A stretch of DNA of 64,000 nucleotides from an uncultured Planctomycetaceae bacterium (GCA_963815195.1 CAWFGE010000013.1:1088001-1152000), one strand, 5' to 3'. Positions 4,996 through 24,379 are shown, counted from the first letter of the stretch. Numbers and translations: made by a program. Notes: a model not told the origin generated them from the sequence alone.

Positions 4996-5379
4996 TCACG
5001 CGGGGCTGAAAGTCTGACGGATGTAGTCGTCGACGTCCGCCTGGGAGCCAAATTTCATCGCATCCTTTCTGCTTCCCGACCACATGCTCCCCGTCCAGAA
5101 TTCGACCACTTCATGAACCGCGCCGATCCCCACCGGTTCTATGTCGCGGCCGACGACCATCCATTGATCCCCGGACGCTTCGGCTTCCGGCACCAACGGA
5201 CCCAGGTGATCGTCAATCCGGCGTTGGACTTCCGCGATGGAGTTTCCGGAAACTTCGTAGGTCCCGCCGCTGGTTTGAACACTCGCACTCCAATAGGGGT
5301 GTTGTGGAATACTTCCGAATGTGGATTTTGTCGACTTCGTGATTTGCACCGCGCGATAGGGAAAGGTCTCATCGCTCAT
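4996..5379 (-). CDS. Hypothetical protein (127 aa)
   Basis: GAGGAG RBS upstream of ATG 5379; the longer ORF-track version would cross the element boundary. Confidence 0.6.
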   Translation of the reverse strand: MSDETFPYRAVQITKSTKSTFGSIPQHPYWSASVQTSGGTYEVSGNSIAEVQRRIDDHLGPLVPEAEASGDQWMVVGRDIEPVGIGAVHEVVEFWTGSMWSGSRKDAMKFGSQADVDDYIRQTFSPA

Positions 5380-5534: not shown

Positions 5535-5548
5535 CTCCGCATCCAGCG
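5535..5548 (+). repeat. Left att core CTCCGCATCCAGCG
   Basis: Identical to 20878-20891; lies at the transition from host genes to element genes. Confidence 0.85.
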
Positions 5549-5716
5549 ACCGAATCGCCTAACCAGAAACAAGATAAGGGCTTAGGCGATGATGCCTCTC
5601 CGACTGTCGCGCCCACTGCAGCGCGAGACCCCGATTTTGCACGTTTGGCGGCGGCGTGGCCGGGGCTTCCTGAGGCGGTGAAGCGGCGAATCCTGGCCCT
5701 GGTTGACGGGGCTTGA
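5549..5716 (+). other. Start-less 55-codon segment, predicted C-terminus of the integrase in the excised form
   Basis: TESPNQ...DPDFARLAAAWPGLPEAVKRRILALVDGA*. It is in the same frame across the att core (ccg cat cca gcg) as the integrase at 20880-20891. An in-frame TGA at 5507 lies upstream and there is no in-frame ATG. Confidence 0.75.
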
Positions 5717-5779
5717 GATCCTGTCCAAAATTTCGGAAATCTGGTCGATTCTCAACACATCACACAGGAAAGGTAGAGA

Positions 5780-6091
5780 ATGACAGGAATTTCCGATGAG
5801 CAACTCGCCGAAGCACTGGACCTGCGGGCCGACCGTTCGGTCAAGATGCGGTTGTGGCAGTATTTCACCATCCTTTTTTCAATCGTCGCCGGGGCTATAA
5901 CCCTGGGGATTCTCTACGGCACAATGTGCGCCGCGCAGAACGAACAAGCCGCCGCGATGAAGAACATGCAGGAGAAATTCGAGCGGACCCTGGAAAAGCT
6001 CGATGACCTCGATAAGCGGGTGTTGGCCGTGGAAATCCAGATGAAACTTCGGGTTGCGATCCGAACCTACGGATCTCCCGTTTCCGAATGA
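5780..6091 (+). CDS. Small single-TM, coiled-coil protein
   Basis: Hydrophobic FTILFSIVAGAITLGILYG followed by a heptad-like tail; purine-rich RBS. Confidence 0.7.
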   Translation: MTGISDEQLAEALDLRADRSVKMRLWQYFTILFSIVAGAITLGILYGTMCAAQNEQAAAMKNMQEKFERTLEKLDDLDKRVLAVEIQMKLRVAIRTYGSPVSE

Positions 6092-6106
6092 CGAAAGGAT
6101 AACGAG

Positions 6107-6208
6107 ATGCCATCCGAAACCCGCCTGTGGCAATGCCCCGGCTGCGCCAAGACCTATCGCATTCCGTTGGCTCTTCGGGATGGGTTGAGGGAAGCCGTTG
6201 AGGATTGA
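6107..6208 (+). CDS. 33-aa micro-ORF with CPGC (half zinc ribbon)
   Basis: MPSETRLWQCPGCAKTYRIP...; AAAGGA RBS; below ORF-track cutoff. Confidence 0.4.
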   Translation: MPSETRLWQCPGCAKTYRIPLALRDGLREAVED

Positions 6209-6210
6209 CC

Positions 6211-9200
6211 TCAACGGAAGCCCCGGCGGTTCAATTCCTGTTCGAGCGAATCGGCGAATTGCCGGGCCATTTCAGGCGTCGGCGGAAATGCGGAATTCAT
6301 GTGCACGTTGATCGGTGCCTTGCCGTGCCCCGCGTCGGCGCGCCCGCTCAAGCCGGGATCGTACAGCACGCCGGAGAGCGAATTGACTCCGAGCACCGGC
6401 GGGGCCACTGGCGTCAAAAGCTGCCGAAGCTGCGCGACCATTTGCCCGATCTGGTTTTCGATTCCGATTCTCCGCCGGGCGGTATCGACGACGCTCAAGT
6501 CTTGTTGCAAGAGCGCGATATTGCTGCGAATCGTGCCGATGAGTCCTTCCTTGCTGGCGAGAAAACTTGTGATCCGAGACCACGCTTGCCCGGCTTGCTG
6601 CGGGCTGATATTGGACGCCGCCTGGGCGACTCGCTGGCCCACTTTCTGCATGTTGGTCCCGAAGTTCGTCATGTTTTGCTTCAGGCCCTGGAAGCCTTGG
6701 CCAATCGCCGGAATTAGGCCATTCAGCCGAGCGAACTTCTGCCACGCGGTTTCGACCTGTTGCGAGAATTGCGACATCCGGAACGCCGCCAGTTTGTCTT
6801 GAACTGCCTTTTGGATGTCGAGTCCCGCCCCCTTGAAATCGCCTTTCAAGAGTGCTTCGCGTTGCTCCTGCTTTTTCTTTTCGGCCGCGGCTGCTACGGC
6901 TTCATTCGTCGCCTGAGTCAAAGCCTGCATCTCGTTGGAAAACTGCCCGATGGAGAGCGAACCATTTTTTAATTGTTCATGCAGTGCCAACGCTTGCCCG
7001 GAAAAGCCATTGAGCGATTCCTTGCTGAGCTTTCCGGCTTCATCAAGATCGAAAATCTTCTGTGCGAAATCGTGGAGAACCGGCTGACCCTGTTCAATGG
7101 ATTGTTTGAGGGTGTCGGCATCGTTGACCATCTTCGCCAGCGATTGGGCGAGCGCATCGAGTGCCTGAGAGTTCCCTTGGTTCTGACCGAAGATGTTCGC
7201 TGCGCCTGAAGCCATTCCCGGAGTGACGCCCTTTTGCAAGCCGAGCATTTGTTGCACCTGCACTGGAGTGATTCCCTCCATTCCAAAGATGCTCCTGAAG
7301 TTTGACGAACCCGGCGTTTGCCGATTCATCGCGGAAAGTTGCGCATCCCGCATGGCCTGTTGAATGCCGGCTTGATTCGCTCGCTGTGCTTCCGTGGGAG
7401 AAGGATTCGCGAATCTTGGATTTGCTCCAGGCGCTTGCCGGCCCGCCTGGTTGGGCGCGGCGTTGCCAATTGGACCCCTTGTGATCGGTATTGTTTCATC
7501 CACAATTGATGCCGCGTTAGTCGTTGCTTTCGCAGGCGTCCCTGCTCCGCGGCCCAACATGAATTGGCGAAAAGAAAAAGGCGACCCTTCGCCGAATCGG
7601 AAACCTCTGGAGATGCCAGAACCAGTGGTTTCGCCTTTCAGTTTCCAACCGGCAAGCAAACCGGAACCCGTCTTGCCGCTTTCCGTTGCTGTTGCTGTTG
7701 CTGTTGCTGCCGATTTGCCTCCACCCAATCCAAGCAATCCGAGCGGTCCAGATAACCCTTTCATAGCCGAACCTGCGCCGCCAATTGATTTCCCCATGTC
7801 CCCAAAAATGGCGTTGAGAGCCGTTGCACTTTCCTTCAATTGGCCAGCAAACAACTCAACGAGAGGTTTTGCGACTTCCAGCAATAGCCTAATTTCAACG
7901 GATAGATTTGCAATGCTCACTTTCAACAGATCCGAAATCAGCGGAGCCAATTCCTTTACCGCCGGCCCCAGTTCGTCGCGGATTAAGACGGCGAGTTCAA
8001 CGAGCGTCGGCCTGATTTGCTGCCAGGCATCGAGTACCGCAGCCGCAATTTGTTCCCATGCGGATTTTGCGGACTGAAACAGATCGCCGAAAATATCGCT
8101 GTTGGCTTCGATCCACGCTTTCACCTGATCGAAATGGGCGATGAGTAATCCGACGGCGACGATCACCGCGCCGATTCCTGTGGAAATCATGGCGGCACGA
8201 AGGCTTCCGAATGCAATCGGTAGAGTGCTTCCAATGGCTGTGGCGAGACGAATCACGACATCGATCAAACCGAAAAACCCGAATACTTTGAGAGTCACAA
8301 GGGCATTCAAGATTTGCGGATGCTGTGCGACGAAATTCATTGCCTGCCCTAAAAATCTTGCGAAACCACCGGCGAGTCTCAACAGAGTCGGAACGACTTC
8401 ACTGGCCGCAATTGCCAATCGACCGAACACGTCGATTGCCCCGCTGACGGCAGACTCAAGGCCCCCAATAAACACGTCTGGGGTGATGCCCGAGAATGAC
8501 CGCGAAAGCCGCATGACTAACGCCCCGATCTGGTTTGCGATGCGATCGACGGCGACTTGAAACCGCGGGCCGCTCATCGCATCCACGACACCAGAAAACG
8601 CCTCCGTGATGCGGTGGAAAGCCGGCAACATGACCTTTCCCGCAGCCTGGGTCAAAGCGTCTTTGATGTTGCTCAACAGACCCGTGAACTTGTGGGACAG
8701 CTTTTCCATCTGGCCGCCGAAACGGTCGGTCAATCCTTCAAGAATGGCCGGAACCGCTATGCTCGCGGAGATTGCCCCATTTTCCGCTTGTTTCATGGCC
8801 GTCGGGATGTCGGTGCCGATTTTCTTCGCCAAGATTTCCCAGGCCGGGATCCCCGCTTCGGCAAGCTGGTTCATTTCCTGGGCGCTGACTTTTCCCTTCG
8901 CTTTGATCTGCCCGAGGGCCAACGTGATGCGGTCCAGTAGTTCCGGCGAGCCACCCAGACCGGCGGCGGCGTCCCCGACTGCGGTCAACATCGGAAGGAT
9001 TTGTTCCGCGGCGAAGCCGAACGCCAAAAGCTTTTGAGCCGATTTAACAAGCCCCGGCATTTCAAACGGAGTCTTGATGGCGAATGCCTTCAATTCTTCC
9101 ATGAATTTTTTGGCTTTTTCGGCGCTGCCGAGCATCGTCGAAAATGCGACTTCGGCATTCTCTGACATCGCGTCGAAGCTAATCCCGATCTTGGCGACCG

Positions 9201-9393
9201 AGCCGGCGATACCGAGCGCCACCCCGCCGACGACGGTCGTAATCCGCGTGGCTGCCCGGTCGATGGCTTTCGCGGCATCCGCCCATTTTTTCGCCAAGTC
9301 TTGCGTGGCGATGGCGGCTTTTTGCATGTTGCGGGCGAAGCCGCTCATATCGGTTTGCACGATGCCGCGAAGCATGTGGAGAACTGTCGTCAT
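6211..9393 (-). CDS. Phage tail tape measure protein (1060 aa)
   Basis: N-terminal tape-measure domain (AFSTMLGSAEKAK..FAIKTPFE..LGQIKAKGKVSAQEMNQLAEAGIP), Ala/Gly-rich helical body, hydrophobic mid segment. Confidence 0.92.
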   Translation of the reverse strand: MTTVLHMLRGIVQTDMSGFARNMQKAAIATQDLAKKWADAAKAIDRAATRITTVVGGVALGIAGSVAKIGISFDAMSENAEVAFSTMLGSAEKAKKFMEELKAFAIKTPFEMPGLVKSAQKLLAFGFAAEQILPMLTAVGDAAAGLGGSPELLDRITLALGQIKAKGKVSAQEMNQLAEAGIPAWEILAKKIGTDIPTAMKQAENGAISASIAVPAILEGLTDRFGGQMEKLSHKFTGLLSNIKDALTQAAGKVMLPAFHRITEAFSGVVDAMSGPRFQVAVDRIANQIGALVMRLSRSFSGITPDVFIGGLESAVSGAIDVFGRLAIAASEVVPTLLRLAGGFARFLGQAMNFVAQHPQILNALVTLKVFGFFGLIDVVIRLATAIGSTLPIAFGSLRAAMISTGIGAVIVAVGLLIAHFDQVKAWIEANSDIFGDLFQSAKSAWEQIAAAVLDAWQQIRPTLVELAVLIRDELGPAVKELAPLISDLLKVSIANLSVEIRLLLEVAKPLVELFAGQLKESATALNAIFGDMGKSIGGAGSAMKGLSGPLGLLGLGGGKSAATATATATESGKTGSGLLAGWKLKGETTGSGISRGFRFGEGSPFSFRQFMLGRGAGTPAKATTNAASIVDETIPITRGPIGNAAPNQAGRQAPGANPRFANPSPTEAQRANQAGIQQAMRDAQLSAMNRQTPGSSNFRSIFGMEGITPVQVQQMLGLQKGVTPGMASGAANIFGQNQGNSQALDALAQSLAKMVNDADTLKQSIEQGQPVLHDFAQKIFDLDEAGKLSKESLNGFSGQALALHEQLKNGSLSIGQFSNEMQALTQATNEAVAAAAEKKKQEQREALLKGDFKGAGLDIQKAVQDKLAAFRMSQFSQQVETAWQKFARLNGLIPAIGQGFQGLKQNMTNFGTNMQKVGQRVAQAASNISPQQAGQAWSRITSFLASKEGLIGTIRSNIALLQQDLSVVDTARRRIGIENQIGQMVAQLRQLLTPVAPPVLGVNSLSGVLYDPGLSGRADAGHGKAPINVHMNSAFPPTPEMARQFADSLEQELNRRGFR

Positions 9394-9405
9394 AGCAAAA
9401 CTCCG

Positions 9406-9762
9406 TCAGTTGGTTTGGGCAGCGGCGGCGAGGGACTCTTGTCGCGTGGGCAACTCAGTAAGCAAGAAAGCGGCGTTAGACGCCCCGGGCAGCGTGCCGA
9501 TGCGATGCCATGCCTGGGGCAATCCTGTGACCCATATCAAAACATCAGGCAGAGTCACAACGCCTCCGCCGATGCCGCTTCTCCACAACTCGCATCGGGC
9601 GAACGTCTCATCGATGGTGCCACCATGCAGCAAGCGCTGAGCGGCGAACAAAGCGGCGAGCGGATTGCTGTCGGTGTTTTCGAGGACGATATTGATGAAG
9701 CCGGCAAGAAAACTCTCGCCGATTTCTTCGGGGGGGATCCGGACCTTGGAGTCGGTGGGCAT
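9406..9762 (-). CDS. Hypothetical protein directly upstream of TMP (candidate tail assembly chaperone)
   Basis: 118 aa, 12-bp gap to TMP, same strand; function inferred from position only. Confidence 0.55.
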   Translation of the reverse strand: MPTDSKVRIPPEEIGESFLAGFINIVLENTDSNPLAALFAAQRLLHGGTIDETFARCELWRSGIGGGVVTLPDVLIWVTGLPQAWHRIGTLPGASNAAFLLTELPTRQESLAAAAQTN

Positions 9763-9932
9763 GGTCTTGGCCTCTTTCGCTGGCCCAAGTGGAAAGAAAA
9801 ACGCGGCGGTGGCTGGTGGGCCAAATGACCAGCGATCTCCGTCGAGACCCGCCGCGTGTGAGGGGCAGACGATACCGCGGATCGGGTTGCTGGCAACGGG
9901 AAAACTGCCAGAAAGCCGACTCAGGGAACCGC

Positions 9933-9961
9933 TTGAATTTCAGCGGCGGACGGGTAAAAAT
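9933..9961 (+). promoter_or_regulatory. Sigma70-like promoter candidate (TTGAAT ... TAAAAAT)
   Basis: -35/-10-like boxes about 16-17 bp apart in GC-rich intergenic DNA upstream of the rightward operon. Confidence 0.4.
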
Positions 9962-10029
9962 AGGGGTACGCGGCTAGGGATGTGCACCCCCGAATACCGG
10001 CTTTCCTGAACCGGCCGCCGCGCTCCTCT
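9962..10029 (+). ncRNA. Structured RNA candidate (CGGCTAGG-N-CCGAA-hairpin-GCCG), resembling the int-alpA type motif
   Basis: Outer stem CGCGGC/GCCGCG encloses two hairpins (GGG-ATGTGCA-CCC and CCGG-N10-CCGG); family resemblance is from memory. Confidence 0.45.
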
Positions 10030-10057
10030 TTTCAGGATTCGTACAGGAGCGAAGCGA

Positions 10058-10774
10058 ATGGATCACGCCACAACGCCAGCCGAATTGATTGCCAGAGCCG
10101 CACAGGACGCAGAGAAACAGGCTGAGCAGCAAGAAATCGAGGCTGCTAAACAATCGCGACGGGAACGGTTTCGTTCAGCGTGGGATGACGTGAGATATTT
10201 CACACAGGACATGGCCGGACATATCTCGCGAGAGCAATTTTATGAGGCCTGGGGGGATCGGATCATCTCGTTGGGGTCGGTACTGAAGGAACTCGGTTGG
10301 GACCGGCACTTGGATTCGATAGGCGATGGCTCCGATTCGCTCAAATATGCCATAGAGATTTTTCGGTCTGCTATCCGAGGCGACGAAGCGAACGTTGCCA
10401 AGCTGATCTTGGATGCTGCTGAAGTGGAAGGGTTTTGTGGTGCAGTCAATGAAGCCCTTCGCACCTCGATCATGCAACGGGTGTGGGAAGCCCAATGGCC
10501 CGCACAAATCAGGGAAGTGCACACCGAATCGGTCTTTGACTGGCCGGAAGCAGTGGCAACCGAAAACAAGAAAAAGCAAACGGTTGTTGAGCGAATGGCG
10601 GCGATTTACAAAAACGATAGGCGTTGTGTGGATTGGACCGCCGAGGAATGGGCGAAACTCCTCAATTGCTCTGTATCAGCGATCAAGAAGCCCGGGAATT
10701 ATGTGTGGAAAGCGATAAAAAAAGATCGTCAGGCCCGAATGGATGCTTTGAAAAAAGGCGGTTACTTAGGGTGA
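10058..10774 (+). CDS. Hypothetical protein with C-terminal HTH
   Basis: WTAEEWAKLLNCSVSAIKK HTH-like motif; AGGAG RBS. Confidence 0.75.
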   Translation: MDHATTPAELIARAAQDAEKQAEQQEIEAAKQSRRERFRSAWDDVRYFTQDMAGHISREQFYEAWGDRIISLGSVLKELGWDRHLDSIGDGSDSLKYAIEIFRSAIRGDEANVAKLILDAAEVEGFCGAVNEALRTSIMQRVWEAQWPAQIREVHTESVFDWPEAVATENKKKQTVVERMAAIYKNDRRCVDWTAEEWAKLLNCSVSAIKKPGNYVWKAIKKDRQARMDALKKGGYLG

Positions 10775-10812
10775 CCGAGTAACCAAGAAAAAAATCTGAG
10801 AAATCAACCGAG

Positions 10813-10843
10813 GCGGTTTCCCTAGTGGGAAACCGCTTTTTTT
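10813..10843 (+). terminator. Intrinsic terminator
   Basis: GCGGTTTCCC-TAGT-GGGAAACCGC followed by T7. Confidence 0.8.
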
Positions 10844-10920
10844 GTTTTGAAGGGGTAACCGAGCGGGTGACCGTGCCGCGGATGGGTAGAGGCGTCAAAT
10901 TGGTGATTGGAGAACCCATC

Positions 10921-11115
10921 ATGCCGAAAAAAACGGAACCGGCGGATTGCGCTACTGTGTGGTTTGCGATCCTGGAGCGAGCAAAAAATCTAAGGGATTT
11001 CGAGCGGGCCGCCGAAGCCCAGCGAGAACTGCGTCGTCTTGGAGTACATGTGACTTTTGATCCTGAGGGGGAAAAGCATGCCAAGCGACGTAAGCCCGGC
11101 TCTCCCGGTCTCTGA
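10921..11115 (+). CDS. Small hypothetical protein
   Basis: GGAG RBS; MPKKTEPADCATVWFAILERA...; overlaps the alpA start. Confidence 0.65.
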   Translation: MPKKTEPADCATVWFAILERAKNLRDFERAAEAQRELRRLGVHVTFDPEGEKHAKRRKPGSPGL

Positions 11116-11338
11116 TCGGCTGCTGGTCGATTCGCACGGCGTCGCCGATCTGCTCTCGATTTCGGAACGACATGTCCGGCAACGGGATGCGGCCGGCAAT
11201 CTCCCCAAGCCCGTGCGGTTGGGGGGATCGGTCCGCTGGAGTGTCCCCGAACTTCGGGCATGGGTGGCTGCCGGCTGCCCGAATCGCGAGACATGGGACG
11301 TCATTCGGAGCGAAGAATTCCCCCGCAAACCGCGGTGA
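11078..11338 (+). CDS. alpA: AlpA-family regulator / excisionase-like HTH
   Basis: VADLLSISERHV..AGNLPKPVRLGGSVRWSVPELRAW. Confidence 0.88.
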   Translation: MPSDVSPALPVSDRLLVDSHGVADLLSISERHVRQRDAAGNLPKPVRLGGSVRWSVPELRAWVAAGCPNRETWDVIRSEEFPRKPR

Positions 11339-11441
11339 AAATCGGGACCGTTGGGGACGGTCAGGATATAGAAAAACCCCACCGGCCGGGGCGGGCTGGC
11401 GGGGTAATCGTGCTCGGCTTGAGCACATCGGAAAGGTCAAC

Positions 11442-12362
11442 ATGATACTATCGCACCGGCCCCAAAAGGGCAATCTGAGCGGACGTGATGCGCGCCGGGA
11501 AAAACTGCGACAGAAGGAACTGGATTTTCCGACGAAGCGCGGCGAACGCTTAAAACTCCTGCGCCAGTGCCGTGTGGGAGACGCCTTAGAAAAACTACTC
11601 CTGCGAACCCTCGATGACCGGATCGGGGACGGGAAAACGTGGCGAATGGGCATCGCCGAACTTGCGGGGGAAATGGAGGTATCGCCGGCAACCGTCTATC
11701 GAAAGCTGGCGTCTCTCGAAGCGAAGGAACTCTTGGTTGCTGAAGAGCGGGCGTCGGGGCTATATGAGTTCCAAGTCATTTTTTCAAATCTGCCCGAACT
11801 CATCCCGCCCCAGGGCCAACAGCAGCAAGCCGGCCGTCGGCGACGCGAAAAACCTTCTCACTGTGCAAAGGAAGTTTCGCAGAGTGAGAAAGATCTTTCT
11901 CACTGTGCGAAACGCACTACTTATAAGCGCCCCGATAGCGCCCAGAGCGCCCACCCCCCAAGCCCCCCAGAGGGGGGATCGGTTGCCGAGCCGCCGCCCC
12001 CAGGCGGGGAAGCGGTTGGCGAGCCGCCGCGCCGCACCTTCCGGGCCGAAGAGTTTCCGATACCTGTCGGACTCGACACGCCAGCGTTCCGCGACGCCTG
12101 GCGGGAGTGGTGCGAGTTTCGCCGCCACACGAAACGCAAGCCCATCAGCGAAGCGGCTGCCGGAAAGCAGATGGCCGGGCTCGACCGGGCTGGTTCCGCC
12201 GCGGCCGTCGAAGCCATCGAAGAAGCCATCGCGAACGACTGGCAAGGTTTGTTCCCCGACACGAAAAAAGGAAATTCCGATGATCGCATCGAACGAAAAG
12301 CCCGGCGTGCCGAGAGTGAATGGGAAGCCGCCTTCCAGGAAACCGCTAAAAGCGATCGGTGA
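11442..12362 (+). CDS. Phage-type replication initiator (N-terminal wHTH, Pro-rich linker, C-terminal replisome-organizer-like domain)
   Basis: IAELAGEMEVSPATVYRKLASLE HTH; AWREWCEFRR..KP..IEEAIANDWQGLF; internal iterons. Confidence 0.78.
   Translation: MILSHRPQKGNLSGRDARREKLRQKELDFPTKRGERLKLLRQCRVGDALEKLLLRTLDDRIGDGKTWRMGIAELAGEMEVSPATVYRKLASLEAKELLVAEERASGLYEFQVIFSNLPELIPPQGQQQQAGRRRREKPSHCAKEVSQSEKDLSHCAKRTTYKRPDSAQSAHPPSPPEGGSVAEPPPPGGEAVGEPPRRTFRAEEFPIPVGLDTPAFRDAWREWCEFRRHTKRKPISEAAAGKQMAGLDRAGSAAAVEAIEEAIANDWQGLFPDTKKGNSDDRIERKARRAESEWEAAFQETAKSDR
11854..11912. repeat. Three iteron-like repeats, CTTTCTCACTSTGCGAAA consensus (direct-inverted-direct); putative ori
   Basis: 11854-11869, 11875-11892 (inverted) and 11895-11912, about 21-bp spacing, inside rep. 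Confidence 0.65.
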
Positions 12363-12915
12363 AGCCTTGAGGCCGCTTCAGGAATTGTGCCGCGATCCCA
12401 AATCGGCATCGGCCCTGCGGAGCTTTGCCGAGTTGCTGGTTGACCTTCCGCCGGTGGACATCGAGACGGCAGTGAAACGCTATCTCCGCGAAGCTGACGA
12501 ACTGTGGTTTCCCTCTCCGGGGAAGCTGCGCAAACTCGCGATGGAAGCCGCGGAAGGCGAACTCCCCGAATGGCAGCACGCCTGGCATCGGGTCATGGAC
12601 GCCTGCCGAATGTGGGACCAACACGATGCAAAAAAGGCGATCACCGCCCGCCAGCATATCGGCGAAACCCTGTATGAATTTGTGCGAATGCTTGGGGGAT
12701 TCGTCGCTCTGACCTCAGTAGATTCCGATACGCTTTCGGTTTTGCAGTCGAATTTCCGGAACGCATTCACGGCCGAACGAAAGCGGGCGGATCGCAATCG
12801 AGCGCTCCCGGATTCATTGCGGCCCGTCCCAGCGAAACTGCATGGACTCGGAAACCGGAATGACTCCGCCAAACTTATTTCCGCGCCCCAGCCAATCGGC
12901 GAAGTTCTGGAATGA
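12280..12915 (+). CDS. Helicase loader/inhibitor-like protein (SPP1 G39P-like)
   Basis: LVDLPPVDIETAVKRY..WFPSPGKLR..AWHRV pattern; overlaps the 3' end of rep. Confidence 0.6.
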   Translation: MIASNEKPGVPRVNGKPPSRKPLKAIGEALRPLQELCRDPKSASALRSFAELLVDLPPVDIETAVKRYLREADELWFPSPGKLRKLAMEAAEGELPEWQHAWHRVMDACRMWDQHDAKKAITARQHIGETLYEFVRMLGGFVALTSVDSDTLSVLQSNFRNAFTAERKRADRNRALPDSLRPVPAKLHGLGNRNDSAKLISAPQPIGEVLE

Positions 12916-13103
12916 GCAAAAAACGCGAATATGAAACCTGGACCATCAAATTCCGAGCGGAGCATTCCCGCGACGATAACCGACCCATTGCAGTCCGCGT
13001 GCGGCGGCTGCTCAAACATGCCTTGCGGGTTTGCGGGTTGCGATGCGTGGAAATTGCGACCGCGACTGAGCAAGCCGACCCCGAATGCGAAGTGAAACCC
13101 TGA
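12912..13103 (+). CDS. Small hypothetical phage/satellite protein
   Basis: ATGA overlap with the upstream gene; RVRRLLKHALRVCGLRCV. Confidence 0.7.
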   Translation: MSKKREYETWTIKFRAEHSRDDNRPIAVRVRRLLKHALRVCGLRCVEIATATEQADPECEVKP

Positions 13104-13139
13104 CCGGCCCTGGTGGGCCAAAAACGAAAGGAAACCCCG

Positions 13140-13943
13140 ATGACCCAACCGACCCCGACGACAACCGAGGAACCCGCCGGCCGCGCCGCGTGCGATGCGT
13201 GGCTTGCCGAGTTTCGTGAGATCCACGATAGCATTCTCAATGTGATTTCCCGCATCCATCGGCTTTCCGCGTGGACCCCCAGCGACGCCCCGGCCGCGGA
13301 GCAGCTCAGGGCGGCTTGTTCCGCCTTTCACCATGCAATGGCCGGTAGCGATGACATCCAGTTCCGCGCCCGCCGGCTTCGGGATCTGGCACATGAGCTT
13401 GGCGGCGCGGGCGTCGAGATGTTCGCGGCGCGGCTCTCGGATTTGCGGGGCCGGATTTCGATGCTGGCTCGCGAGATCCCGGACCTGCCGGCAGATTTCG
13501 GCATTCTCCCCGCGCGATGGTTCGGTGATCTCGCCCGGATCGATCACAGCGTTTCGGCGGACGGCATTCGGCACGTGCTCGCCGTCGGGAGCGTTGAGCA
13601 TTTCGCCCCGGACCATTGGGTTCGGAGGATTCTTGATGCCGATGACTTTTACCGGCTTGGCGACAGCCCCGCTTTGGTGTTGGGCGAGTTTGACGTGCAC
13701 GGCGTTCCGCGGCCATTCTACAGCGTGCCCAGCGTGCGGAATCTGACATACAGCTATCGATTGGGCCAACGCGAGCGCGAGCAACGGCAGCAACAGGATC
13801 TCGACCGCTGGCGGAGCGACGTGGAGATGCGGGACCGTGCGGCCCGCGGTCCGGTACACGATTTGGGCGCGCAACTATCCCACACACAGGCCGAGCTAGC
13901 CGCGTTGCGGGCTGAGATTAAGGGCTTAAAAAATGAATCGTGA
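13140..13943 (+). CDS. Hypothetical protein with C-terminal coiled coil
   Basis: GAAAGGA RBS; part of the rightward operon. Confidence 0.72.
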   Translation: MTQPTPTTTEEPAGRAACDAWLAEFREIHDSILNVISRIHRLSAWTPSDAPAAEQLRAACSAFHHAMAGSDDIQFRARRLRDLAHELGGAGVEMFAARLSDLRGRISMLAREIPDLPADFGILPARWFGDLARIDHSVSADGIRHVLAVGSVEHFAPDHWVRRILDADDFYRLGDSPALVLGEFDVHGVPRPFYSVPSVRNLTYSYRLGQREREQRQQQDLDRWRSDVEMRDRAARGPVHDLGAQLSHTQAELAALRAEIKGLKNES

Positions 13944-14151
13944 GCGACGCCTCGAGCGCCTGGAGCAATCCGCCCCCGCTCCCTCCACCGGAGATGGCCG
14001 CCGCATCATCACGATTCGCGGGATCTGCGACCACGGCAGACACTGGGCGCTGGTGTTCGGCGTTTCGTCTCTGGATGCCAATGGCCATGTGCTGTGGGCC
14101 GATGTGATTGGGGTTCCTTGTTCGTTTTGTGGGGAGACAGATGAGCCTTGA
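13933..14151 (+). CDS. Small hypothetical protein (N-terminal RRLERLE, CxxC)
   Basis: Overlaps both neighbours. Confidence 0.6.
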   Translation: MNRERRLERLEQSAPAPSTGDGRRIITIRGICDHGRHWALVFGVSSLDANGHVLWADVIGVPCSFCGETDEP

Positions 14152-14470
14152 TCGCCGACTTCAGAGACTGGAACACCGGGCCATCGCGGCCTTCCCCGCC
14201 CCAACCCCCGCGGAGTGGCGGGACTATCGCGGGGTTCACATGGTGATTTCGCACCATCTACGCCACCATGACGACATTGCGGAGCGGCTCCGCGTGGCCG
14301 TCGCTGCCGGCGCGGTGGATCCCGTGGTCGACGATGCGATCGCATCGTTTTTGCGGTGCATTGCCCAGAAAAGGGTTTGCGAAATGTGCCAGCGGGACAT
14401 CATTGGACTGTGGCTCGCCGAGACGGAGCAACACGTGCGAGGGGATCGGCCTAACCTGATTGAGTCCTGA
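14141..14470 (+). CDS. Hypothetical protein (N-terminal RRLQRLE, CxxC)
   Basis: GGGAG RBS; overlaps the upstream gene. Confidence 0.62.
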   Translation: MSLDRRLQRLEHRAIAAFPAPTPAEWRDYRGVHMVISHHLRHHDDIAERLRVAVAAGAVDPVVDDAIASFLRCIAQKRVCEMCQRDIIGLWLAETEQHVRGDRPNLIES

Positions 14471-14471
14471 A

Positions 14472-14867
14472 ATGACCGAAAATGGCAACGAAAAACGCGG
14501 GAATCAAGAATCCCAGGATGAGCAAATGCTCTTGGCGCTCGCCAGCGGTGCGAGCGTCAAACAGGCCGCGGACGCGTGCAATCTATCCGAGCGGACCATT
14601 CGCCGGCGGCTGGATGATGCGAGCTTCGTTGCCCGGCTGCGGGCGATGCGGTCCGATGTGCTTGACGGCGTTTTGGGCCGGCTGACGTTCGCGGCGGCTT
14701 CGGCGGTCGAGGTGCTCAAAACGTTGATGGCGGATGCCGAGAGCGAAACGGTGAAATTGGGAGCGGCCCGGGCCGTCCTTGAGCATGCTGGCAAACTTCG
14801 GGCGGACATCGAATTTGAGAGCCGGCTCGCCGAATTGGAGCGCCGGCTTTCCGGGCCAGAGCGTTAA
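14472..14867 (+). CDS. HTH protein, terminase-small-subunit-like
   Basis: LALASGASVKQAADACNLSERTIRRRL HTH plus helical oligomerisation-type region (AVEVLKTLM..VKLGAARAVL). Confidence 0.68.
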   Translation: MTENGNEKRGNQESQDEQMLLALASGASVKQAADACNLSERTIRRRLDDASFVARLRAMRSDVLDGVLGRLTFAAASAVEVLKTLMADAESETVKLGAARAVLEHAGKLRADIEFESRLAELERRLSGPER

Positions 14868-14871
14868 CAAT

Positions 14872-14897
14872 AAAAAACCGCCGGCGGCAACCGGCGG
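14872..14897 (-). terminator. Intrinsic terminator (minus strand)
   Basis: A6-CCGCCGG-N6-CCGGCGG between convergent genes. Confidence 0.55.
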
Positions 14898-15113
14898 CTC
14901 GGAAAGGTTGGGAGAATGGATAACACGAATCATCAGGCCGGGCAAGCCGATGGCGAAAATCAATCGCCGTGCTTCCGAGGGAATTCCCAGGCTGACGATC
15001 GGCTACCCAGACGACTCGGAGGCCGTCTTTCCGTCTGCGTCGATTCTGGGGCATCCTGGGGCGTCTCAGGGCCAATGGCGATTTTCGCCGTTTATTCGCC
15101 GATTTTCGGCGGT

Positions 15114-15395
15114 TCATTCCTTCGGCTTGGCTTCCTTCGACTTCGGCTTCCGGCGAGGCTCGCGGACATCAGCGGGGAGCTTCGGGATTTTCGCCTTGGT
15201 CAATCGCATGCCGAAGAACTGGCACAGATTGTTGATCGTATCCATTGCCATCGAATCCCTGTCACCGGAATACCATCGCTGCAGGGATGGTCGCGAGATT
15301 CCCGCTTTCTCGGCAATTCGCAGGATCGACCAGCCTTTGGCGACGGCTTCGGTCATCGCATCATAAAGCTGTTCGGAAACGGTCTTTTCGGTCAT
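15114..15395 (-). CDS. XRE-family HTH repressor
   Basis: SILRIAEKAGISRPSLQRWYSG..MDTINNLCQFFG; AGGAG RBS. Confidence 0.85.
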   Translation of the reverse strand: MTEKTVSEQLYDAMTEAVAKGWSILRIAEKAGISRPSLQRWYSGDRDSMAMDTINNLCQFFGMRLTKAKIPKLPADVREPRRKPKSKEAKPKE

Positions 15396-15633
15396 GGGGG
15401 TAAATCTCCTAAAGCCTATTTGTATCGTCTGGCACAAGTATTTTCAAGAAATAGCCGGAATCGCGGCGGTTAAATGTTGAGGAGTAATGTGCCAAGCGGT
15501 ACAATCACGCCATCGGGACAACACAATCAACCCCCCAACCCAGCCGAGTTGCTCTGAGCGCACAAAAAGGGCCGGCGGGTCTCACACACCCGGCCGGCCT
15601 GATTCATCCCATCCCTGACGAAAGGTTTGAAAG

Positions 15634-15930
15634 ATGATGACCGAATCTTATCCGCGCGGCCTTGCCGGGGCAACGCTTCCTGCCCCGCAAATCGAACGCC
15701 TGTGGTGGACTAGCCGCACGATCGAATCCGCTCTTCGGGTTCTGACCATCGATCTCCAAACGGACTCCGAGGAACAACTCGCGGCATCCGCTTTGACCAC
15801 GATCGTCGGCCGCATGACCGCGCAAGAGCGGTCCGCCATCCGCCAGTTGGCCGCGGATTGGCTTTGCTTCTGGAGAATTCGCAACGAGCGCCAACGCCGC
15901 TTGTGGCGGCTGGTACGCGAGCTTACCTGA
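15634..15930 (+). CDS. Hypothetical protein
   Basis: First ORF of the operon divergent from the XRE gene. Confidence 0.55.
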   Translation: MMTESYPRGLAGATLPAPQIERLWWTSRTIESALRVLTIDLQTDSEEQLAASALTTIVGRMTAQERSAIRQLAADWLCFWRIRNERQRRLWRLVRELT

Positions 15931-15991
15931 CCCCTCACCCTCTCGGCCCGGCCCGCCAGATGGGGCCGGGCATTTTCCCGGAGAACCAACT

Positions 15992-16989
15992 ATGCAACCC
16001 GAAGAATGGACCGTCAGACGGCTTTTTGAGGAACACTATTGCCCGCGCCGCAAGAGCGCAACACAAAGGACTCGGCAAAAAATGGGGCACGAGCTTAACC
16101 GGTGGGAGCGATTCATCGGCGCGGACATGCTGGCCACCGAGGTTATGCGCGAGACCTTCGACCGCTTTCGCGAACTGGCGGCCGTCGATGGCCTCTCCCC
16201 CAACACCATCGAAACGACGATTGGCAGCATTTTGACGATACTGCGGTTTGCCGAGCTTTACGATCTCATCGACCGCGCACTGCGCAAAGGCGAACCGCTC
16301 CGCCGGACTCGGAAACGAAAGTATGTGCCATCGATAACCGACGTTGACCATCTTTATCGGCGGGCCAACCAAGCGAAATGGCCGCTGCCGAGTCCATCCG
16401 CTTTCTGGCGGGCGTGGCTGGTTTGCAGCTATTTCACAGGCCTACGGCTGAACGACATGATTGGTTTGCTGTGGAGCAGTTTTCGGGATGATTCGCTCAT
16501 CATCGAAGCCGAAAAAACCGGGAAAATGCATATCTTTCCCGTTTCGCCGATCTTGGAATCGCACCTCGAACCGCTGCGGGTTTTTGGTTCAGACCGGGTT
16601 TTCCCCATCCCCAGGAATTCCGGGAAGTACGTCCGCCGGGAGCTTGAGCGTTTATCCGATGGATTGCCCACCAAGATTGGCCCGCAGGCCCTTCGGCGGC
16701 TGGCGGGAACGCAGTGGCAAAGAGCCCGCTGGGCGCGGGCCAGTTGCTTTTGGGCCATACGCTGGGCGTGTCTGATTTTTATATCGCTCCCGAACTCTTA
16801 AACGACGCAATCGAGAATCTCGAAATCCCGTCCGCTTTCACAGAGCCGAAAAACCAAGCCGGAGATCCGCTTACCGAAGTTGAGCAGCGATTTTCCGGGC
16901 TGGAGGAGGGACATCAGCGGCTCGCCCTCGAAATGATTGAAGAGTTTGCCCAGCGCATCGGCAACGGGAAAGGGGGCGATTCATGCTGA
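15992..16989 (+). pseudogene. Tyrosine recombinase 1, frameshifted near 16727 (possibly a sequencing error)
   Basis: FTGLR, EKTGK and QALRR in ORF 15992-16801; LLGH..SDFY continues in ORF 16714-16989. Confidence 0.75.
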
Positions 16990-17873
16990 CCGTCAGAGAG
17001 ATCTTCACCGACCATTTTTGCCCGTCTCGCGACATCGCGGAATCGACACGCGACAAAATGGGCTACCAGATCCGGCGATTCGAAAAGCACATTGGCCCGA
17101 TGCCGGCGGTTGAGATTGGGGCCGAGACCTTCCATCAGTTCCGGCAAGTTTGCATGTTTCTGGGGCTATCGAAAGTCACCATCGAAATGACGATTGATAG
17201 CGTGCTGAACGTGCTTCGGTGTGCGGAATCGCAGGGCATTGTCCCCAAAGCCCCGGAGAAAGGCGAACCCCTCGACCGGATCGAAAAGCAGGACGGTGAA
17301 TTCAATGCCGAACTCGAAAACTTCCGGGCGCGCGAGGATTTGCCCATCACCGTGCAGGACTTGGAGCGGATTCTCGGGGCGGCTCGCACAATGCCCGAGG
17401 CCCTGGACGGCATCCCCGGCGGCTTGTGGTGGCCTGCGCTGGTGCTTTGCATTCTTGACACCGGGCGGAATGGAATCGACCTCTTGGAATTGCCGGTCGA
17501 GGCTTACGACCGGGATTCGGGAGCGCTCCGCATCGGCCGCAAGAAATTCAGACTGCACGCCCACACCGCGAACGCCCTCGATGCCGTCCGGACCTACGAC
17601 CGGGAACGGCTGTTTCCCTGGCCGAAGGACGGGCGCGAGCGGCCCTATTGCATGTTCTATCACGATTATCAGGATCTCTTGCACCGGGCCGGCCTGCCCC
17701 CGATGCAGAAGCGGCCATTGGCGAGGCTGCGAAAACTCGGCGAACGCTATCCGCAAATCCTGGACGCCATCGACTCGCACCGGCCCTTCCAGCCGATCCA
17801 AGGAAAGCCGGACCGCGGCCGGAAGCGAAAGCCGAAGCGCCGAAAGCCGCGCGCCGCCACGGCGTTTATGTGA
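16983..17873 (+). CDS. Tyrosine recombinase-like protein 2, catalytic motifs degenerate
   Basis: N-terminus paralogous to recombinase 1; WWPALVLCILDTG; no HxxR, LGH or Tyr box recognised. Confidence 0.7.
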   Translation: MLTVREIFTDHFCPSRDIAESTRDKMGYQIRRFEKHIGPMPAVEIGAETFHQFRQVCMFLGLSKVTIEMTIDSVLNVLRCAESQGIVPKAPEKGEPLDRIEKQDGEFNAELENFRAREDLPITVQDLERILGAARTMPEALDGIPGGLWWPALVLCILDTGRNGIDLLELPVEAYDRDSGALRIGRKKFRLHAHTANALDAVRTYDRERLFPWPKDGRERPYCMFYHDYQDLLHRAGLPPMQKRPLARLRKLGERYPQILDAIDSHRPFQPIQGKPDRGRKRKPKRRKPRAATAFM

Positions 17874-18784
17874 TCGGCGACGATTCGCCCAACACCTTGC
17901 GGAACTACTTCACTTCGACTTATCGGCCGCTAAAGCTGATTGGCTGCTCGCACCGGACCGTTAATTCCTATATCACGGTCATCAATGGCTTTTCGACGTT
18001 CCTGGCGTGCGAAGCGAACCTGCATCACCTGACGGATGATTTCTTAGGCCGCTATTCAGCGTGGATGTCTGAAAAGGAGTATGAGCCGACCACGATCAAC
18101 GGCCATCTGCGGCATCTTCTTGCCCTGTGGCGGCACGCGTGGAAGAAACGCCGCGTGGAGGAGCGCCCCCGCGATGTCGATTTCCTGCCGACCTACAAGC
18201 GCAATCCCACTGCCTGGACGGTCGAGGAAATGGGCCGAATCCTCACATCGGCTCGCCAAGCGGAAGGCGACTTCAAAGGCATACCGGCAAACCTGTTTTG
18301 GCCGGCTCTCATTTTGACGATGTATGACACCGGCCTGCGATTGGGGGCGATGATGCAACTCAAAGCCACAGATCTGAACCTGGAAACCGGCATTCTGATT
18401 GCCCGGGCCGAGACGCAAAAGCAGAAGGCCGATCAGGTGTTTCGGCTTCGGCGGCAAACCGTGGAATCGCTTGAGGCCATCGACCCGCCGGCCCGGGAAT
18501 TCCTCTTCGGCTATCCAGAATATGAAACCAACAAGCGGAGGATTTACCGGACGCTCAATGAGATTCTGGAGCGGGCCGGATTGCCCGCAACCGACCGCGA
18601 CAAGTTCCACAAGATTCGGCGAACCAGCGCGACCCTTTTGGCCGATGCGATGGGCGAGGAAGCGGCGAAAGAACACTTAGGGCATAGCAGCATCAACATC
18701 ACGCGAGGGTATTTGGATCTCACGAAGATTCGCCCCCGCGTGAACTCGGCCGAGGCGATCCCCAACCCGGAGAACCGACCATGA
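17870..18784 (+). CDS. Tyrosine recombinase 3 (intact)
   Basis: YDTGLR, TQKQK, FHKIRR, LGHSS, TRGY; GTGA overlap with the upstream stop. Confidence 0.88.
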   Translation: MIGDDSPNTLRNYFTSTYRPLKLIGCSHRTVNSYITVINGFSTFLACEANLHHLTDDFLGRYSAWMSEKEYEPTTINGHLRHLLALWRHAWKKRRVEERPRDVDFLPTYKRNPTAWTVEEMGRILTSARQAEGDFKGIPANLFWPALILTMYDTGLRLGAMMQLKATDLNLETGILIARAETQKQKADQVFRLRRQTVESLEAIDPPAREFLFGYPEYETNKRRIYRTLNEILERAGLPATDRDKFHKIRRTSATLLADAMGEEAAKEHLGHSSINITRGYLDLTKIRPRVNSAEAIPNPENRP

Positions 18785-19032
18785 TTCCCAAAAAATTGAG
18801 ACGCGAGCTATTCGCCGAGTGGGACGGACGTTGCACCTATTGTTCACGATCGCTTCCGATGCGCAAGATCACGATCGATCACATCATCCCGGAGAGCCGG
18901 GACGGGCGGACCGCACTGGAAAACCTCGTGATCTGCTGCGCCCATTGCAACCAATCCAAGCGCGACCGAACGCCGGAAGAATGGGCCGCGGATATTCTCG
19001 CTGCGTGCGGGGCGGCCGTGCCGACGCATTGA
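18781..19032 (+). CDS. HNH endonuclease
   Basis: CTYC..TIDHIIP..G..NLVICCAHCNQSK. Confidence 0.9.
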   Translation: MIPKKLRRELFAEWDGRCTYCSRSLPMRKITIDHIIPESRDGRTALENLVICCAHCNQSKRDRTPEEWAADILAACGAAVPTH

Positions 19033-19093
19033 ACCGAAAGCCCGTAGCGTGTGCTGCGGATGAATCCTTTTCCCTCAGATTGGAGAACCGACA

Positions 19094-19276
19094 ATGTTTG
19101 ACCGAATGTTCCAATTCATCCGCCGGGGCGTTCGTGACGCCATTCTCGGCGGCATCGACGATGCCCAAGCCGAGATTGCGGGCCGGTTCGAAGCCCGCGA
19201 ACCCATCACCATCGAAGCCAAGCCCACCGACGGAAACGGCAAGCCAAAGGCCCGGCAAAAAGCCGGCAGCCGATAA
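19094..19276 (+). CDS. Small hypothetical protein
   Basis: GGAG RBS; 60 aa. Confidence 0.55.
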   Translation: MFDRMFQFIRRGVRDAILGGIDDAQAEIAGRFEAREPITIEAKPTDGNGKPKARQKAGSR

Positions 19277-19313
19277 CCGGACCCCGCAAACCCTCAATAG
19301 GAGCAACCCCGAC

Positions 19314-20957
19314 ATGGCAAGCGTATTCAAACGCAAATACAAGGATTCCCGCACCGGGAAGATGAAAACCACATCCAGATGGCAGGTGGCGTTCAAGGAC
19401 CACAACCGAATCCGCCGGACGTTGCCCGGATTCACCGATAAAACGCTGACCAAGGATCTCGGCCGGAAGCTGGAGCGGCTGGCGGAACGCCGCCGGCTGA
19501 ACCGCGATCCTGATGAAGAACTGGCGGCATGGTTGGAAACGTCCGATGCGAAACTCAAGGCGAAACTCGCGGAATGGGGGATGCTCGATTCCCGATCCGT
19601 GGCCGGGGCAAAGCCTCTCGCGGAACACATCGGCGACTACCGGAAGCATCTGGAAGCGAAGAATAACACCCCCGACCACATCAACCCGACGATCAGCCGG
19701 ATTGAAGCGATTGCCAACGGTTGTGGGTTCCTGTTCATTTCCGACGTTTCCGGCTCCCATGTGGCCGCGTGGTTGAAGGATCAACGGGAAGCCGATGCCT
19801 TCGGCATCTCGACCAGCAACGCCTATCTGACCGCCCTGAAGGGCTTCTGTAATTGGCTGGTGAAGGATCGGCGGGCGAATGAAAACCCCGTCTCGTATCT
19901 GGCCCGGTTGAATGCTGAGACTGACATCCGACGGCAACGGCGTTCGCTCTCGCAAGAAGACTTCGGGCTGCTGATCGAAGCGACCCGCACCGGGGCGGAA
20001 GTCTGCGGGCTCACCAGCCGGGAACGGCAGATGCTCTACCATGTGGCCGCTTACACCGGCCTCCGGGCTTCGGAATTGGCGAGCCTGACGGAACGGTCGT
20101 TTGACCTGGAAGCCGAGCATCCCACGGTCACCGTGGCGGCCGGCTATTCCAAGCACCGGCGGAAAGACACGTTGCCCCTCAATGCGGATTTGGTGGTTTC
20201 GCTGTGGGAGTGGTTCGCCGAGCGGCGGCAAGAAGTGGCCGAAGTTTCCGACATCATCCCCATCGGCAAGCCTTCAGCGGACAAGTTGTGGCCCGGAAAG
20301 TGGGCGAAGAACCGGCATGCGGCCGAGATGCTACGGCACGATCTCAAAGCAGCCCGCACCGCATGGATCGAAGCCAAGGGTATTACCGAAGAGGAACGCC
20401 GGCTGCGGGAGGAATCCGACCGGCTGAAATACCTCGACTTTGATGAACGGCAGTTTGACTTCCACGCGCTCCGCGGGCAATTCGTCACCGAGTTGGGCAG
20501 GGCCGGCGTCAATCTGCAAGACGCCCAAAAGCTGGCCCGGCATTCCGACCCGCGGCTGACCGCGAACCATTACACGCACCTATCGGTTTCCGACCTGTCG
20601 CGTTCTGTGTGCAAACTGCCCGCACTGCCGAAGCCGAAGGAAGCCGCCCAAGCGACCGGGACCGACGGCAAGCCGGCGACCGCTCCGGAAAACTGCAGCG
20701 CCTATGCGCGCCGCCCTGGTGCCGAACAATGCCGCCCTGTGCCGGAATCTGGCAATTCTGGCAATTTGGAGGATTCCGCCCCGGAAAAGCAAAAACCCCC
20801 GAAACCCTCTAAAACAGGGGCTTCGGTGGAATACCCGAGGGGGGACTCGAACCCACACGAGGTTTACCCTCACTGGTCTCCGCATCCAGCGCGGATATCG
20901 GACTCTTCCGGCGAATGGGGGGGGACGCGGATGATTTGTTCGTGTGATGATCAATGA
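19314..20957 (+). CDS. int: Main tyrosine integrase; ORF reads through the right att site
   Basis: N-terminal arm-binding-like domain; YTGLRASEL, SKHRR, FHALR, LARHSD, NHY; AGGAG RBS; last 21 codons lie outside the element. Confidence 0.93.
   Translation: MASVFKRKYKDSRTGKMKTTSRWQVAFKDHNRIRRTLPGFTDKTLTKDLGRKLERLAERRRLNRDPDEELAAWLETSDAKLKAKLAEWGMLDSRSVAGAKPLAEHIGDYRKHLEAKNNTPDHINPTISRIEAIANGCGFLFISDVSGSHVAAWLKDQREADAFGISTSNAYLTALKGFCNWLVKDRRANENPVSYLARLNAETDIRRQRRSLSQEDFGLLIEATRTGAEVCGLTSRERQMLYHVAAYTGLRASELASLTERSFDLEAEHPTVTVAAGYSKHRRKDTLPLNADLVVSLWEWFAERRQEVAEVSDIIPIGKPSADKLWPGKWAKNRHAAEMLRHDLKAARTAWIEAKGITEEERRLREESDRLKYLDFDERQFDFHALRGQFVTELGRAGVNLQDAQKLARHSDPRLTANHYTHLSVSDLSRSVCKLPALPKPKEAAQATGTDGKPATAPENCSAYARRPGAEQCRPVPESGNSGNLEDSAPEKQKPPKPSKTGASVEYPRGDSNPHEVYPHWSPHPARISDSSGEWGGTRMICSCDDQ
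20832..20876 (-). tRNA. 3' half of a tRNA-Leu gene (attP-borne fragment, not a full tRNA)
   Basis: Reverse complement reads CCAG-T-GAGG GTAAA CCTC (long variable arm)-GT-GTGGG TTCGAGT CCCCC-CTCGGGT-A (discriminator A); no D-arm or 5' acceptor strand upstream. Confidence 0.8.
20878..20891 (+). repeat. Right att core CTCCGCATCCAGCG
   Basis: Identical to 5535-5548; abuts the tRNA fragment. Confidence 0.85.
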
Positions 20958-21049
20958 TGGGATTTACCTCCCCACGGGAAGGTGAAAGAGCGCGGACAAG
21001 GTAATTCTTTATCACCGTCGTCGTCGCCCCCTGATTATCCGGAGGAACC
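20901..21049. repeat. ~150-bp MITE-like dispersed repeat, copy 1
   Basis: Similar to 24132-24288; imperfect terminal inverted repeats and a central hairpin. Confidence 0.7.
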
Positions 21050-21050
21050 A

Positions 21051-22860: not shown

Positions 22861-22897
22861 TTGAAAACCAATCCAATTCAGCGGACGCAGCGTTGGC

Positions 22898-24288: not shown

Positions 24289-24379
24289 ATCAAACACATT
24301 CGACTCGAAGCCCAGAGCGTGCTAACTTGGGGAGAATTGCTATCTGCACGTTGAGCCATGCCGATTTCGGGAGTCTTCT

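Follow-up and report, generated by a model that had tools for sequence, protein, structure and literature searches.

A 15.3-kb integrated element of a soil planctomycete with a tape-measure gene and no recognizable capsid: a candidate phage satellite

A window of 64,000 nucleotides from an uncultured Planctomycetaceae bacterium (GCA_963815195.1 CAWFGE010000013.1:1088001-1152000; G000:C13:1088001-1152000 in our numbering) contains a real, intact and site-specifically inserted element at positions 5535-20891, a span of ~15.3 kb in a soil planctomycete chromosome. All positions are counted in this window unless a contig is named; C1, C5, C8, C10, C12, C13 and C20 are contigs of the host assembly G000 (8.87 Mb, 94.6% complete), and G001, G002 and G003 are genomes of the same genus. 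Matches to TIGR03009 below the cut-off (E 6e-19) support, without proving, a planctomycete host. A sequence-only reading of the window had proposed a capsid-less phage satellite. Our data support an intact, capsid-less element that resembles the phage-inducible chromosomal islands (PICIs). A satellite is the single most likely explanation; a family with shared gene order was not found, and no helper is evident. We judge the chances to be about even that the element is a PICI-like satellite packaged in the particle of a helper siphovirus that is built around the element's own tape-measure protein (TMP).

Three lines of evidence fix the ends of the element: the site is empty in same-genus genomes, an integrase frame continues over the junction predicted for the circle, and the ends align with tRNA-Leu junctions elsewhere in the host. 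A perfect 14-bp direct repeat lies at both ends (Table 1) and has no other copy in the 8.87-Mb genome; as a sole signal it would be modest, as the runner-up matches between the same two stretches reach 12 bp. In G001 the left flank (up to window 5480) and the right flank (from 21051) are separated by 85 bp, and the alignment breaks at the repeat. The flanking host genes are joined and the element is absent at the locus in G002 and G003; the site is thus empty in all three same-genus genomes. Terminal repeats and intact ends had both been read from the sequence, with a search for the empty site proposed as a check, and these expectations held, down to attachment (att) arms that are in register. 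The GC content of the element (59%) is similar to that of the host.

Integration alters the C-terminus of the integrase, which has 547 aa in the integrated state and 581 aa over the predicted circle junction. Both ends are in register, because this frame continues without a stop through the junction predicted for the circle and agrees with a junction on C1, where the added 55-aa tail is conserved in frame. Integrases with attP inside int, such as that of Myxococcus phage Mx8, likewise exchange their C-terminus on integration. Unlike those enzymes, the integrase described here has the tRNA-Leu anticodon loop as its native target, and this copy is at a secondary site. Remnants of sister elements are present in the host assembly at tRNA-Leu(CAA) and tRNA-Leu(TAG) (C12:785292-786890, C20:373120-373482 and C1:6175-6399). 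On C12, a frameshifted sister integrase (85% aa identity over the first 337 residues) adjoins an intact tRNA-Leu(CAA); on C20, an integrase stub that is 88% identical adjoins tRNA-Leu(TAG); the matching opposite junction, with the element arm, is located on C1. A tRNA-Leu(TAG) copy followed by the same element arm suggests target switching. At the sister sites the core arms enclose the anticodon loop, whereas both junctions in the window carry another 7-mer. Since this 7-mer shares 6 of its 7 bases with the G001 chromosome and is not the anticodon loop, the copy is at a secondary non-tRNA site with a host-derived spacer. ARAGORN finds no tRNA anywhere in the window, where only the 3' half of one is present. 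The element thus comes from a tRNA-Leu-targeting integrase lineage and resides here at a secondary non-tRNA site. The spacer common to both ends could have arisen through mismatch-tolerant exchange with repair, or through an earlier excision and re-entry.

Genes were called with a codon model, and open reading frames (ORFs) were scanned in Pfam, PHROGs, NCBIfam and PADLOC. The element has 20 genes, is ~90% coding, and has no gap larger than 295 bp. From the left, it comprises a membrane protein; the minus-strand TMP and a 118-aa orphan; a rightward run (238 aa, 64 aa, AlpA, O-like replication initiator, its partner, 63, 267, 72 and 109 aa, and a gene resembling the terminase small subunit, TerS); a leftward XRE gene; and a last rightward run (98 aa, two accessory recombinases, HNH, 60 aa and int). 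Pfam, PHROGs and NCBIfam returned no capsid, portal, terminase large subunit (TerL), tube or lysis family for any scanned ORF. Head-tail adaptor, stopper, scaffold and capsid-morphogenesis families gave no match either, among ORFs of which several are orphans. With TMP and recombinases excluded, the longest ORF is at most 306 aa, and because the largest gap is 295 bp, none could conceal a head, tube or lysis gene. By these scans and by gap size, the head, tube, tip and lysis modules of a complete temperate phage are not recognizable. The sequence-only reading had recognized no capsid, portal, TerL, tail tube or lysis gene and had listed the XRE repressor, the HNH gene and the TMP as the one structural gene, and the family scans agree with it on each. 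It had also described an operon of alpA, rep, loader, small ORFs and a TerS-like gene. The AlpA-like, O-type and TerS-like members were found; the loader label derives from gene position and from phrog_9804, a family of unknown function, and this protein may resemble G39P-type loaders. No primase was matched in the element. A promoter scan was at chance level, with 4 found and 4.6 expected.

The TMP is the sole PF20155 gene in the host genome. Of its 351 matches, P0020 is the closest, and the two proteins align over their full lengths (40% overall). The TMP has two hydrophobic segments by hydropathy (residues 361-388 and 398-424) and sits on a short tree branch (0.29 against a median of 0.45). 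It is encoded on the strand opposite to TerS in a two-gene unit at the element end; given this arrangement and the lack of any gap above 295 bp, no remains of head or tail genes can be seen. The second gene of the unit, the 118-aa orphan, has no homologue and no similarity to the chaperones upstream of related phage TMPs, and its structural model is of low confidence (pLDDT 45), too poor for a useful fold search. Many TMP relatives in IMG/VR lie, by eye, after tube- and chaperone-type genes on the same strand.

These features suggest how such a satellite could operate. Repression by XRE would silence the recombinase-integrase unit, while the int-alpA RNA and AlpA would gate the replication operon. 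Infection by a helper would lead to excision, and circularization would give the integrase its 55-aa tail. The O-like Rep and the likely loader could then replicate the circle with the host helicase, and the likely TerS would make the TerL and portal of the helper act on element DNA. In tail assembly, the helper's TMP would give way to that of the element, for which the 118-aa orphan may serve as chaperone, and the result would be chimeric tails of ~160 nm, at 0.15 nm per TMP residue. The likely gain would be escape from TMP-directed exclusion or defense, or an edge in tail assembly. Ltp exclusion, as described in PMC3952083, acts on TMP.

Several observations weigh against this explanation. 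The closest TMP, P0020, comes from a 34.8-kb Logan contig that may be a full phage. The tail chaperone beside our TMP is a candidate by position, while the PICI-like elements (PLEs) of Vibrio pair their TMP with one. The replication module is lambdoid, without a primase, and by eye the same module occurs in an apparent full prophage (G875). The hidden Markov model support for TerS is weak (phrog_2538, E 3e-5). No second element with the same gene order was found in 301-401 phylum genomes, IMG/VR or JGI metagenomes. The nine non-self TMP loci recovered from the phylum comprise five prophage tail modules, one chaperone-plus-TMP remnant (G093 C3) and three small islands. Finally, the host assembly contains no match for the Terminase_6N, HK97 capsid, HK97 portal, sheath or tube families. 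Two TerL genes are present, one with a TerS-like gene and a portal piece flanked by insertion sequences (C12:1106500-1112200), the other a lone GpA-type TerL (C10:467500-469500), with no head or tail genes nearby; capsid genes occur in other small islands of the genome. When 1303 ORFs of 90 phage loci were compared with the assembly by tblastn, no tail module came to light. A helper prophage, which the sequence-only reading had suggested seeking elsewhere in the genome, is therefore not recognizable in the 94.6% complete assembly, and a helper would be external or in unassembled DNA.

The same genes could instead be what remains of a streamlined temperate siphovirus, which lost its head, tube, tip and lysis genes through internal deletions, along with an inversion, and kept the att arms, early genes, TerS and TMP; such a remnant might be excisable and would not be packaged. 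Relatives of the individual genes bear on this possibility in both directions. A TerS-like profile matches in 19 of 401 phylum genomes and in four viral contigs; among 13 stretches and these contigs, the homologues lie directly before TerL in three (L035, L037, L070), as a phage origin would predict, and after primase or helicase genes without TerL in four, the latter confirmed by PHROGs. The rep partner occurs in 12 of 201 family genomes, both in islands and in the apparent prophage of G875, which has the lambdoid O-type rep as well. Its two paralogues in the host assembly are both in small islands, that on C8 with a protease-capsid gene, and in G901 the lineage is accompanied by TerS and a head protease. 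Remnants consisting of chaperone and TMP exist, as in G093; G901 has short TMP-like fragments (by eye); several decayed islands lie in the host genome; and the lack of a syntenic second copy is also what a remnant would leave. However, the TMP is unbroken and on the strand opposite to TerS, no pseudogene debris is visible, and the two apparent frameshifts are likely assembly errors. In addition, the stretches examined for the int-alpA RNA show it as a marker of small islands, and island TMPs have been captured more than once. We consider a decayed phage somewhat unlikely.

The evidence for repeated capture comes from a search with the TMP N-terminus, which found 8 of 301 phylum genomes, the host included. 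An 11-kb island in G008, with 48-bp ends at tRNA-Gln, carries an Ogr/Delta-like gene, a protease-capsid fusion and a TMP, with no portal or terminase recognized (L197/L025); its sister in G326 (L024) has protease-capsid plus TMP; and an island of G004 at tRNA-Val carries a primase, AlpA-like genes, a TMP and HNH. In a tree of 34 TMP domains, which includes several long branches, a single clade of the four island TMPs is rejected (p-AU 6e-5), and island TMPs were thus captured repeatedly. A GTDB-wide TMP scan returned no close relative and four distant loci. A 563-aa gene of the G420 island is TMP-like by eye; it has no Pfam or PHROG match and was not counted. The G004, G851 and G420 islands yielded no right att repeat.

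The int-alpA RNA (RF02996) is present in 26 of 101 family genomes. In 19 stretches that carry it, some on short contigs and one apparently chromosomal, 42 selected ORFs were scanned; no head-plus-tail module is in view, most copies adjoin an integrase or primase, and some have single virion genes nearby: TerS and capsid in G548, proteases in G505 and G420. This RNA is a convenient marker of many small tRNA-linked islands in the host family (L198-L228); int-alpA is absent from the main text of PMC5737381. Small int/alpA/rep islands with one or two virion genes are thus recurrent in the host family, and this particular gene set is not. The proposal of a satellite family stands only in that a satellite is the most likely reading; the matching synteny it anticipated in other Planctomycetota was absent from the 301-401 phylum genomes, as from IMG/VR and JGI. 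Close relatives were likewise absent for the integrase in IMG/VR, for the 267-aa protein in JGI, and for the rep-partner alignment in both. The family of that 267-aa protein (~250 aa, 17 relatives after P0145 was removed as a low-complexity artefact) has no member in 400 other phylum genomes. Its model shows a helical bundle, a small beta domain and a long C-terminal helix; no fold match at E<=0.001 exists in BFVD or PDB, and the best (VIA, Z 5.7, rmsd 3.9, 68 aligned) involves generic helical parts and excludes no family. The ESM Atlas offered nothing usable for the 267-aa or 118-aa proteins.

Alternatively, the element could be a PICI-like island whose TMP does not enter its own particles: a decoy that poisons the tail assembly of infecting phages, or recently captured cargo. 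The TMP occupies the usual accessory position between att and regulators (accessory positions as given in PMC10085698), it has its own divergent transcription unit with a chaperone that is only a positional candidate, and tail assembly is a known defense target (Rta; described in PMC12987554). Yet the TMP is full length and has kept both termini and its hydrophobic segments, as a working ruler needs, and the orphans adjoining it have no PADLOC match. We regard a decoy or passenger role as unlikely.

The sequence-only reading counted four tyrosine recombinase genes; we find three, with four recombinase-type domains. Contigs from a soil run, X1, are near-identical to the window (one contig per site, depth 5 at 16730 and 3.5 at 17854) and have one additional base at each site, with which frame arithmetic joins the split ORFs into proteins of 332 aa and 600 aa. 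The G901 homologue of the second recombinase is a single 743-aa protein that matches both halves. Both frameshifts are likely to be assembly errors. Scattered indel errors in the assembly are indeed likely, because X1 also has two additional bases at 21514, where the host gene to the right of the element is split. X1 is possibly the source sample of the assembly, and the element's presence there says nothing independent about how widely it has spread; X2 and X3 contain almost nothing of it. Joints of a circle or of an empty site were absent from X1, X2 and X3 alike, which is uninformative given low-depth contigs in which parts of TMP and rep have little cover. Extra diverged X1 contigs, also at low depth, over the rep partner and 267-aa gene (12564-13390) and the integrase (~20250-20440) hint at a second related element in the soil sample.

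Tandem or fused accessory tyrosine recombinases besides the main integrase recur in planctomycete islands (L190, L185, L221, L157) and are followed by HNH in G000, G851 and G901. A RIT element consists of three tandem recombinase genes between terminal inverted repeats; this assignment was rejected for the element, which has two tandem genes after the likely frameshift corrections and a longest flanking inverted repeat of 10 bp. One could also envision that a mobile recombinase-recombinase-HNH cassette and a TMP cassette were separately inserted into a minimal int-alpA-rep island, so that the whole is not one unit. Such recombinases do occur, in two cases with HNH, in the G851, G901, G033 and G733 islands without this TMP. 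No inverted repeat above 10 bp flanks the cassette, however, and it is translationally coupled to HNH and forms one run with int. A composite of this kind appears very improbable.

Three further observations concern the genomic surroundings. A 127-aa orphan at 4996-5379 (minus strand), just outside the element, is 74% identical in G001 and missing at the site in G002 and G003. Intergenic repeats of two families (one of ~150 bp, one palindromic) are scattered through the genome in many copies, among them window 20900-21050, 24130-24290 and 22680-22880, and one copy abuts the insertion site. The host assembly also has large tRNA arrays at C12:573209-575422 (21 genes), C8:349717-351119 (11) and C5:30370-31947 (9).

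Table 1. Features of the element, by position in the window
Feature	Position	Strand	Evidence and remarks
Left att core	5535..5548		14-bp direct repeat; 5535-5541 is the 7-nt spacer at the tRNA-Leu anticodon-loop position
Element att arm	5549..5716	+	Codes 55-aa C-terminal tail gained by integrase on circularization; 78% nt identity to C1:6175-6345
103-aa protein	5780..6091	+	One predicted membrane helix, coiled tail; no significant family match
Tape-measure protein (TMP), 1060 aa, full length	6211..9393	-	PF20155 E 4e-29; phrog_12798 E 4e-57; TIGR02675
118-aa orphan	9406..9762	-	Placed and sized like a tail assembly chaperone; directly upstream of TMP
int-alpA RNA motif RF02996	9967..10037	+	Full length, 35.3 bits against a gathering score of 35.8; precedes rightward run
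238-aa protein	10058..10774	+	Possible C-terminal helix-turn-helix (by eye); no significant family match
64-aa ORF	10921..11115	+	Weak codon score
AlpA/excisionase-like regulator	11078..11338	+	phrog_66 E 1e-6; PF05930 E 0.007 (below Pfam cut-off)
Replication initiator, lambda O-like	11442..12362	+	phrog_678 E 5e-19
Rep partner, 211 aa, likely helicase loader	12280..12915	+	phrog_9804; start overlaps rep end, as in C8 paralogue
63-aa ORF	12912..13103	+	Short homologous stretch in G851 island
267-aa protein, unnamed family	13140..13943	+	17 relatives; model pLDDT 88
72-aa ORF	13933..14151	+	Begins with RL.RLE coiled motif, a type found after TerS-like genes in related islands
109-aa ORF	14141..14470	+	Begins with RL.RLE coiled motif
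Likely terminase small subunit	14472..14867	+	Helix-turn-helix and helical oligomerization part; phrog_2538 E 3e-5
XRE/Cro-C1 repressor	15114..15395	-	PF13443 E 9e-7; divergent from recombinase-HNH-integrase unit
98-aa ORF	15634..15930	+	
Accessory tyrosine recombinase 1	15992..16989	+	332 aa if X1 base at 16730 is right; split in window; phrog_1 E 2e-17
Accessory tyrosine recombinase 2	16983..18784	+	Degenerate N-terminal recombinase domain and C-terminal domain with catalytic motifs; 600 aa provided that X1 is correct at 17854
HNH endonuclease, 83 aa	18781..19032	+	PF14279 E 1.5e-14
60-aa ORF	19094..19276	+	
Tyrosine integrase, tRNA-targeting lineage	19314..20957	+	PF00589 E 6.5e-17; reads through right att site
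3' half of tRNA-Leu(CAA) as element att arm	20832..20877	-	
Right att core	20878..20891		14-bp direct repeat

Known satellites provide a frame for the element. Like PICIs (SatelliteFinder type B; de Sousa et al. 2023, PMC10085698), it combines an integrase, an AlpA-type regulator, a replication module and a likely TerS in one satellite-size chromosomal island, with no lysis gene recognized. Unlike PICIs, it has a tail gene, an O-type initiator and not a primase, two extra recombinases and no recognized capsid-morphogenesis gene (a component that PICIs often lack), and its host phylum is outside the range reported in that work, more than 99.9% Proteobacteria or Firmicutes. The PICI model described there has five core genes and forbids tail genes and holin. 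The element has the integrase (PF00589, att sites) and the alpA/merR/stl regulator (phrog_66, XRE); SatelliteFinder would reject it as a PICI because tail genes are forbidden and a TMP is present.

The PLEs of Vibrio cholerae are described as making chimeric tails with their own TMP and chaperone (TMP/TAC/BhuB; Mathur et al. 2026, PMC12987554), and the legend to Extended Data Fig. 10 of that report notes putative tmp genes in other satellites, capsid-forming PICIs (cf-PICIs) included. Like PLEs, our element is capsid-less and integrated, and it encodes a TMP of its own that a small gene immediately precedes. Unlike PLEs, it has no recognized chaperone or baseplate hub, and its TMP is of the PF20155 type, with relatives in siphovirus-like tube-and-chaperone modules, as opposed to the contractile ICP1; no similarity to PLE genes was noticed in searches that were not aimed at them. 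The EPIPs of Mycolicibacterium aichiense carry a TMP and are reported to have tails longer than the helper's (Qian et al. 2025, PMC12822802). Small size, TerS (a likely one in the element), TMP and helix-turn-helix genes, and the lack of tube and holin genes, are common to EPIPs and the element. EPIPs, however, have a serine integrase, head-tail adaptor, stopper and scaffold, whereas the element has only tyrosine recombinases and none of the other three was recognized. With cf-PICIs it shares a PICI-type chassis plus TMP; unlike them, it has no recognized capsid, portal or TerL. TMP-carrying satellites are therefore already published, as PLEs, EPIPs and some cf-PICIs. The element would work most like a PICI with a PLE- or EPIP-type TMP, and is formally a member of none of the PICI, PLE and EPIP families.

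Supply of its own tail ruler by a satellite has so far been shown only in Vibrio (PLE, 2025-26) and suggested for EPIPs. Our literature search found nothing that joins planctomycetes, phage satellite and prophage, and no planctomycete satellite by title or abstract opening. If the element is such a satellite, finders that forbid tail genes would miss its kind by design. Its attP inside int, together with a host-derived spacer at both ends, is a clean and testable case of integrase retargeting. Tentatively, one could envision that planctomycetes possess a class of satellites, gated by int-alpA RNA, that capture single virion genes. The present one would be a tail-only siphovirus parasite that uses its own TMP to enter cells whose prophage blocks that of the helper, and its integrase would retarget by taking up the 7-nt spacer found at each new site, and so move among tRNA-Leu isoacceptors and non-tRNA sites. 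Should a packaged satellite with its own TMP prove correct, tail manipulation by satellites would reach a distant phylum of which few phages are known, and would do so in a family whose other islands include TMPs captured independently.

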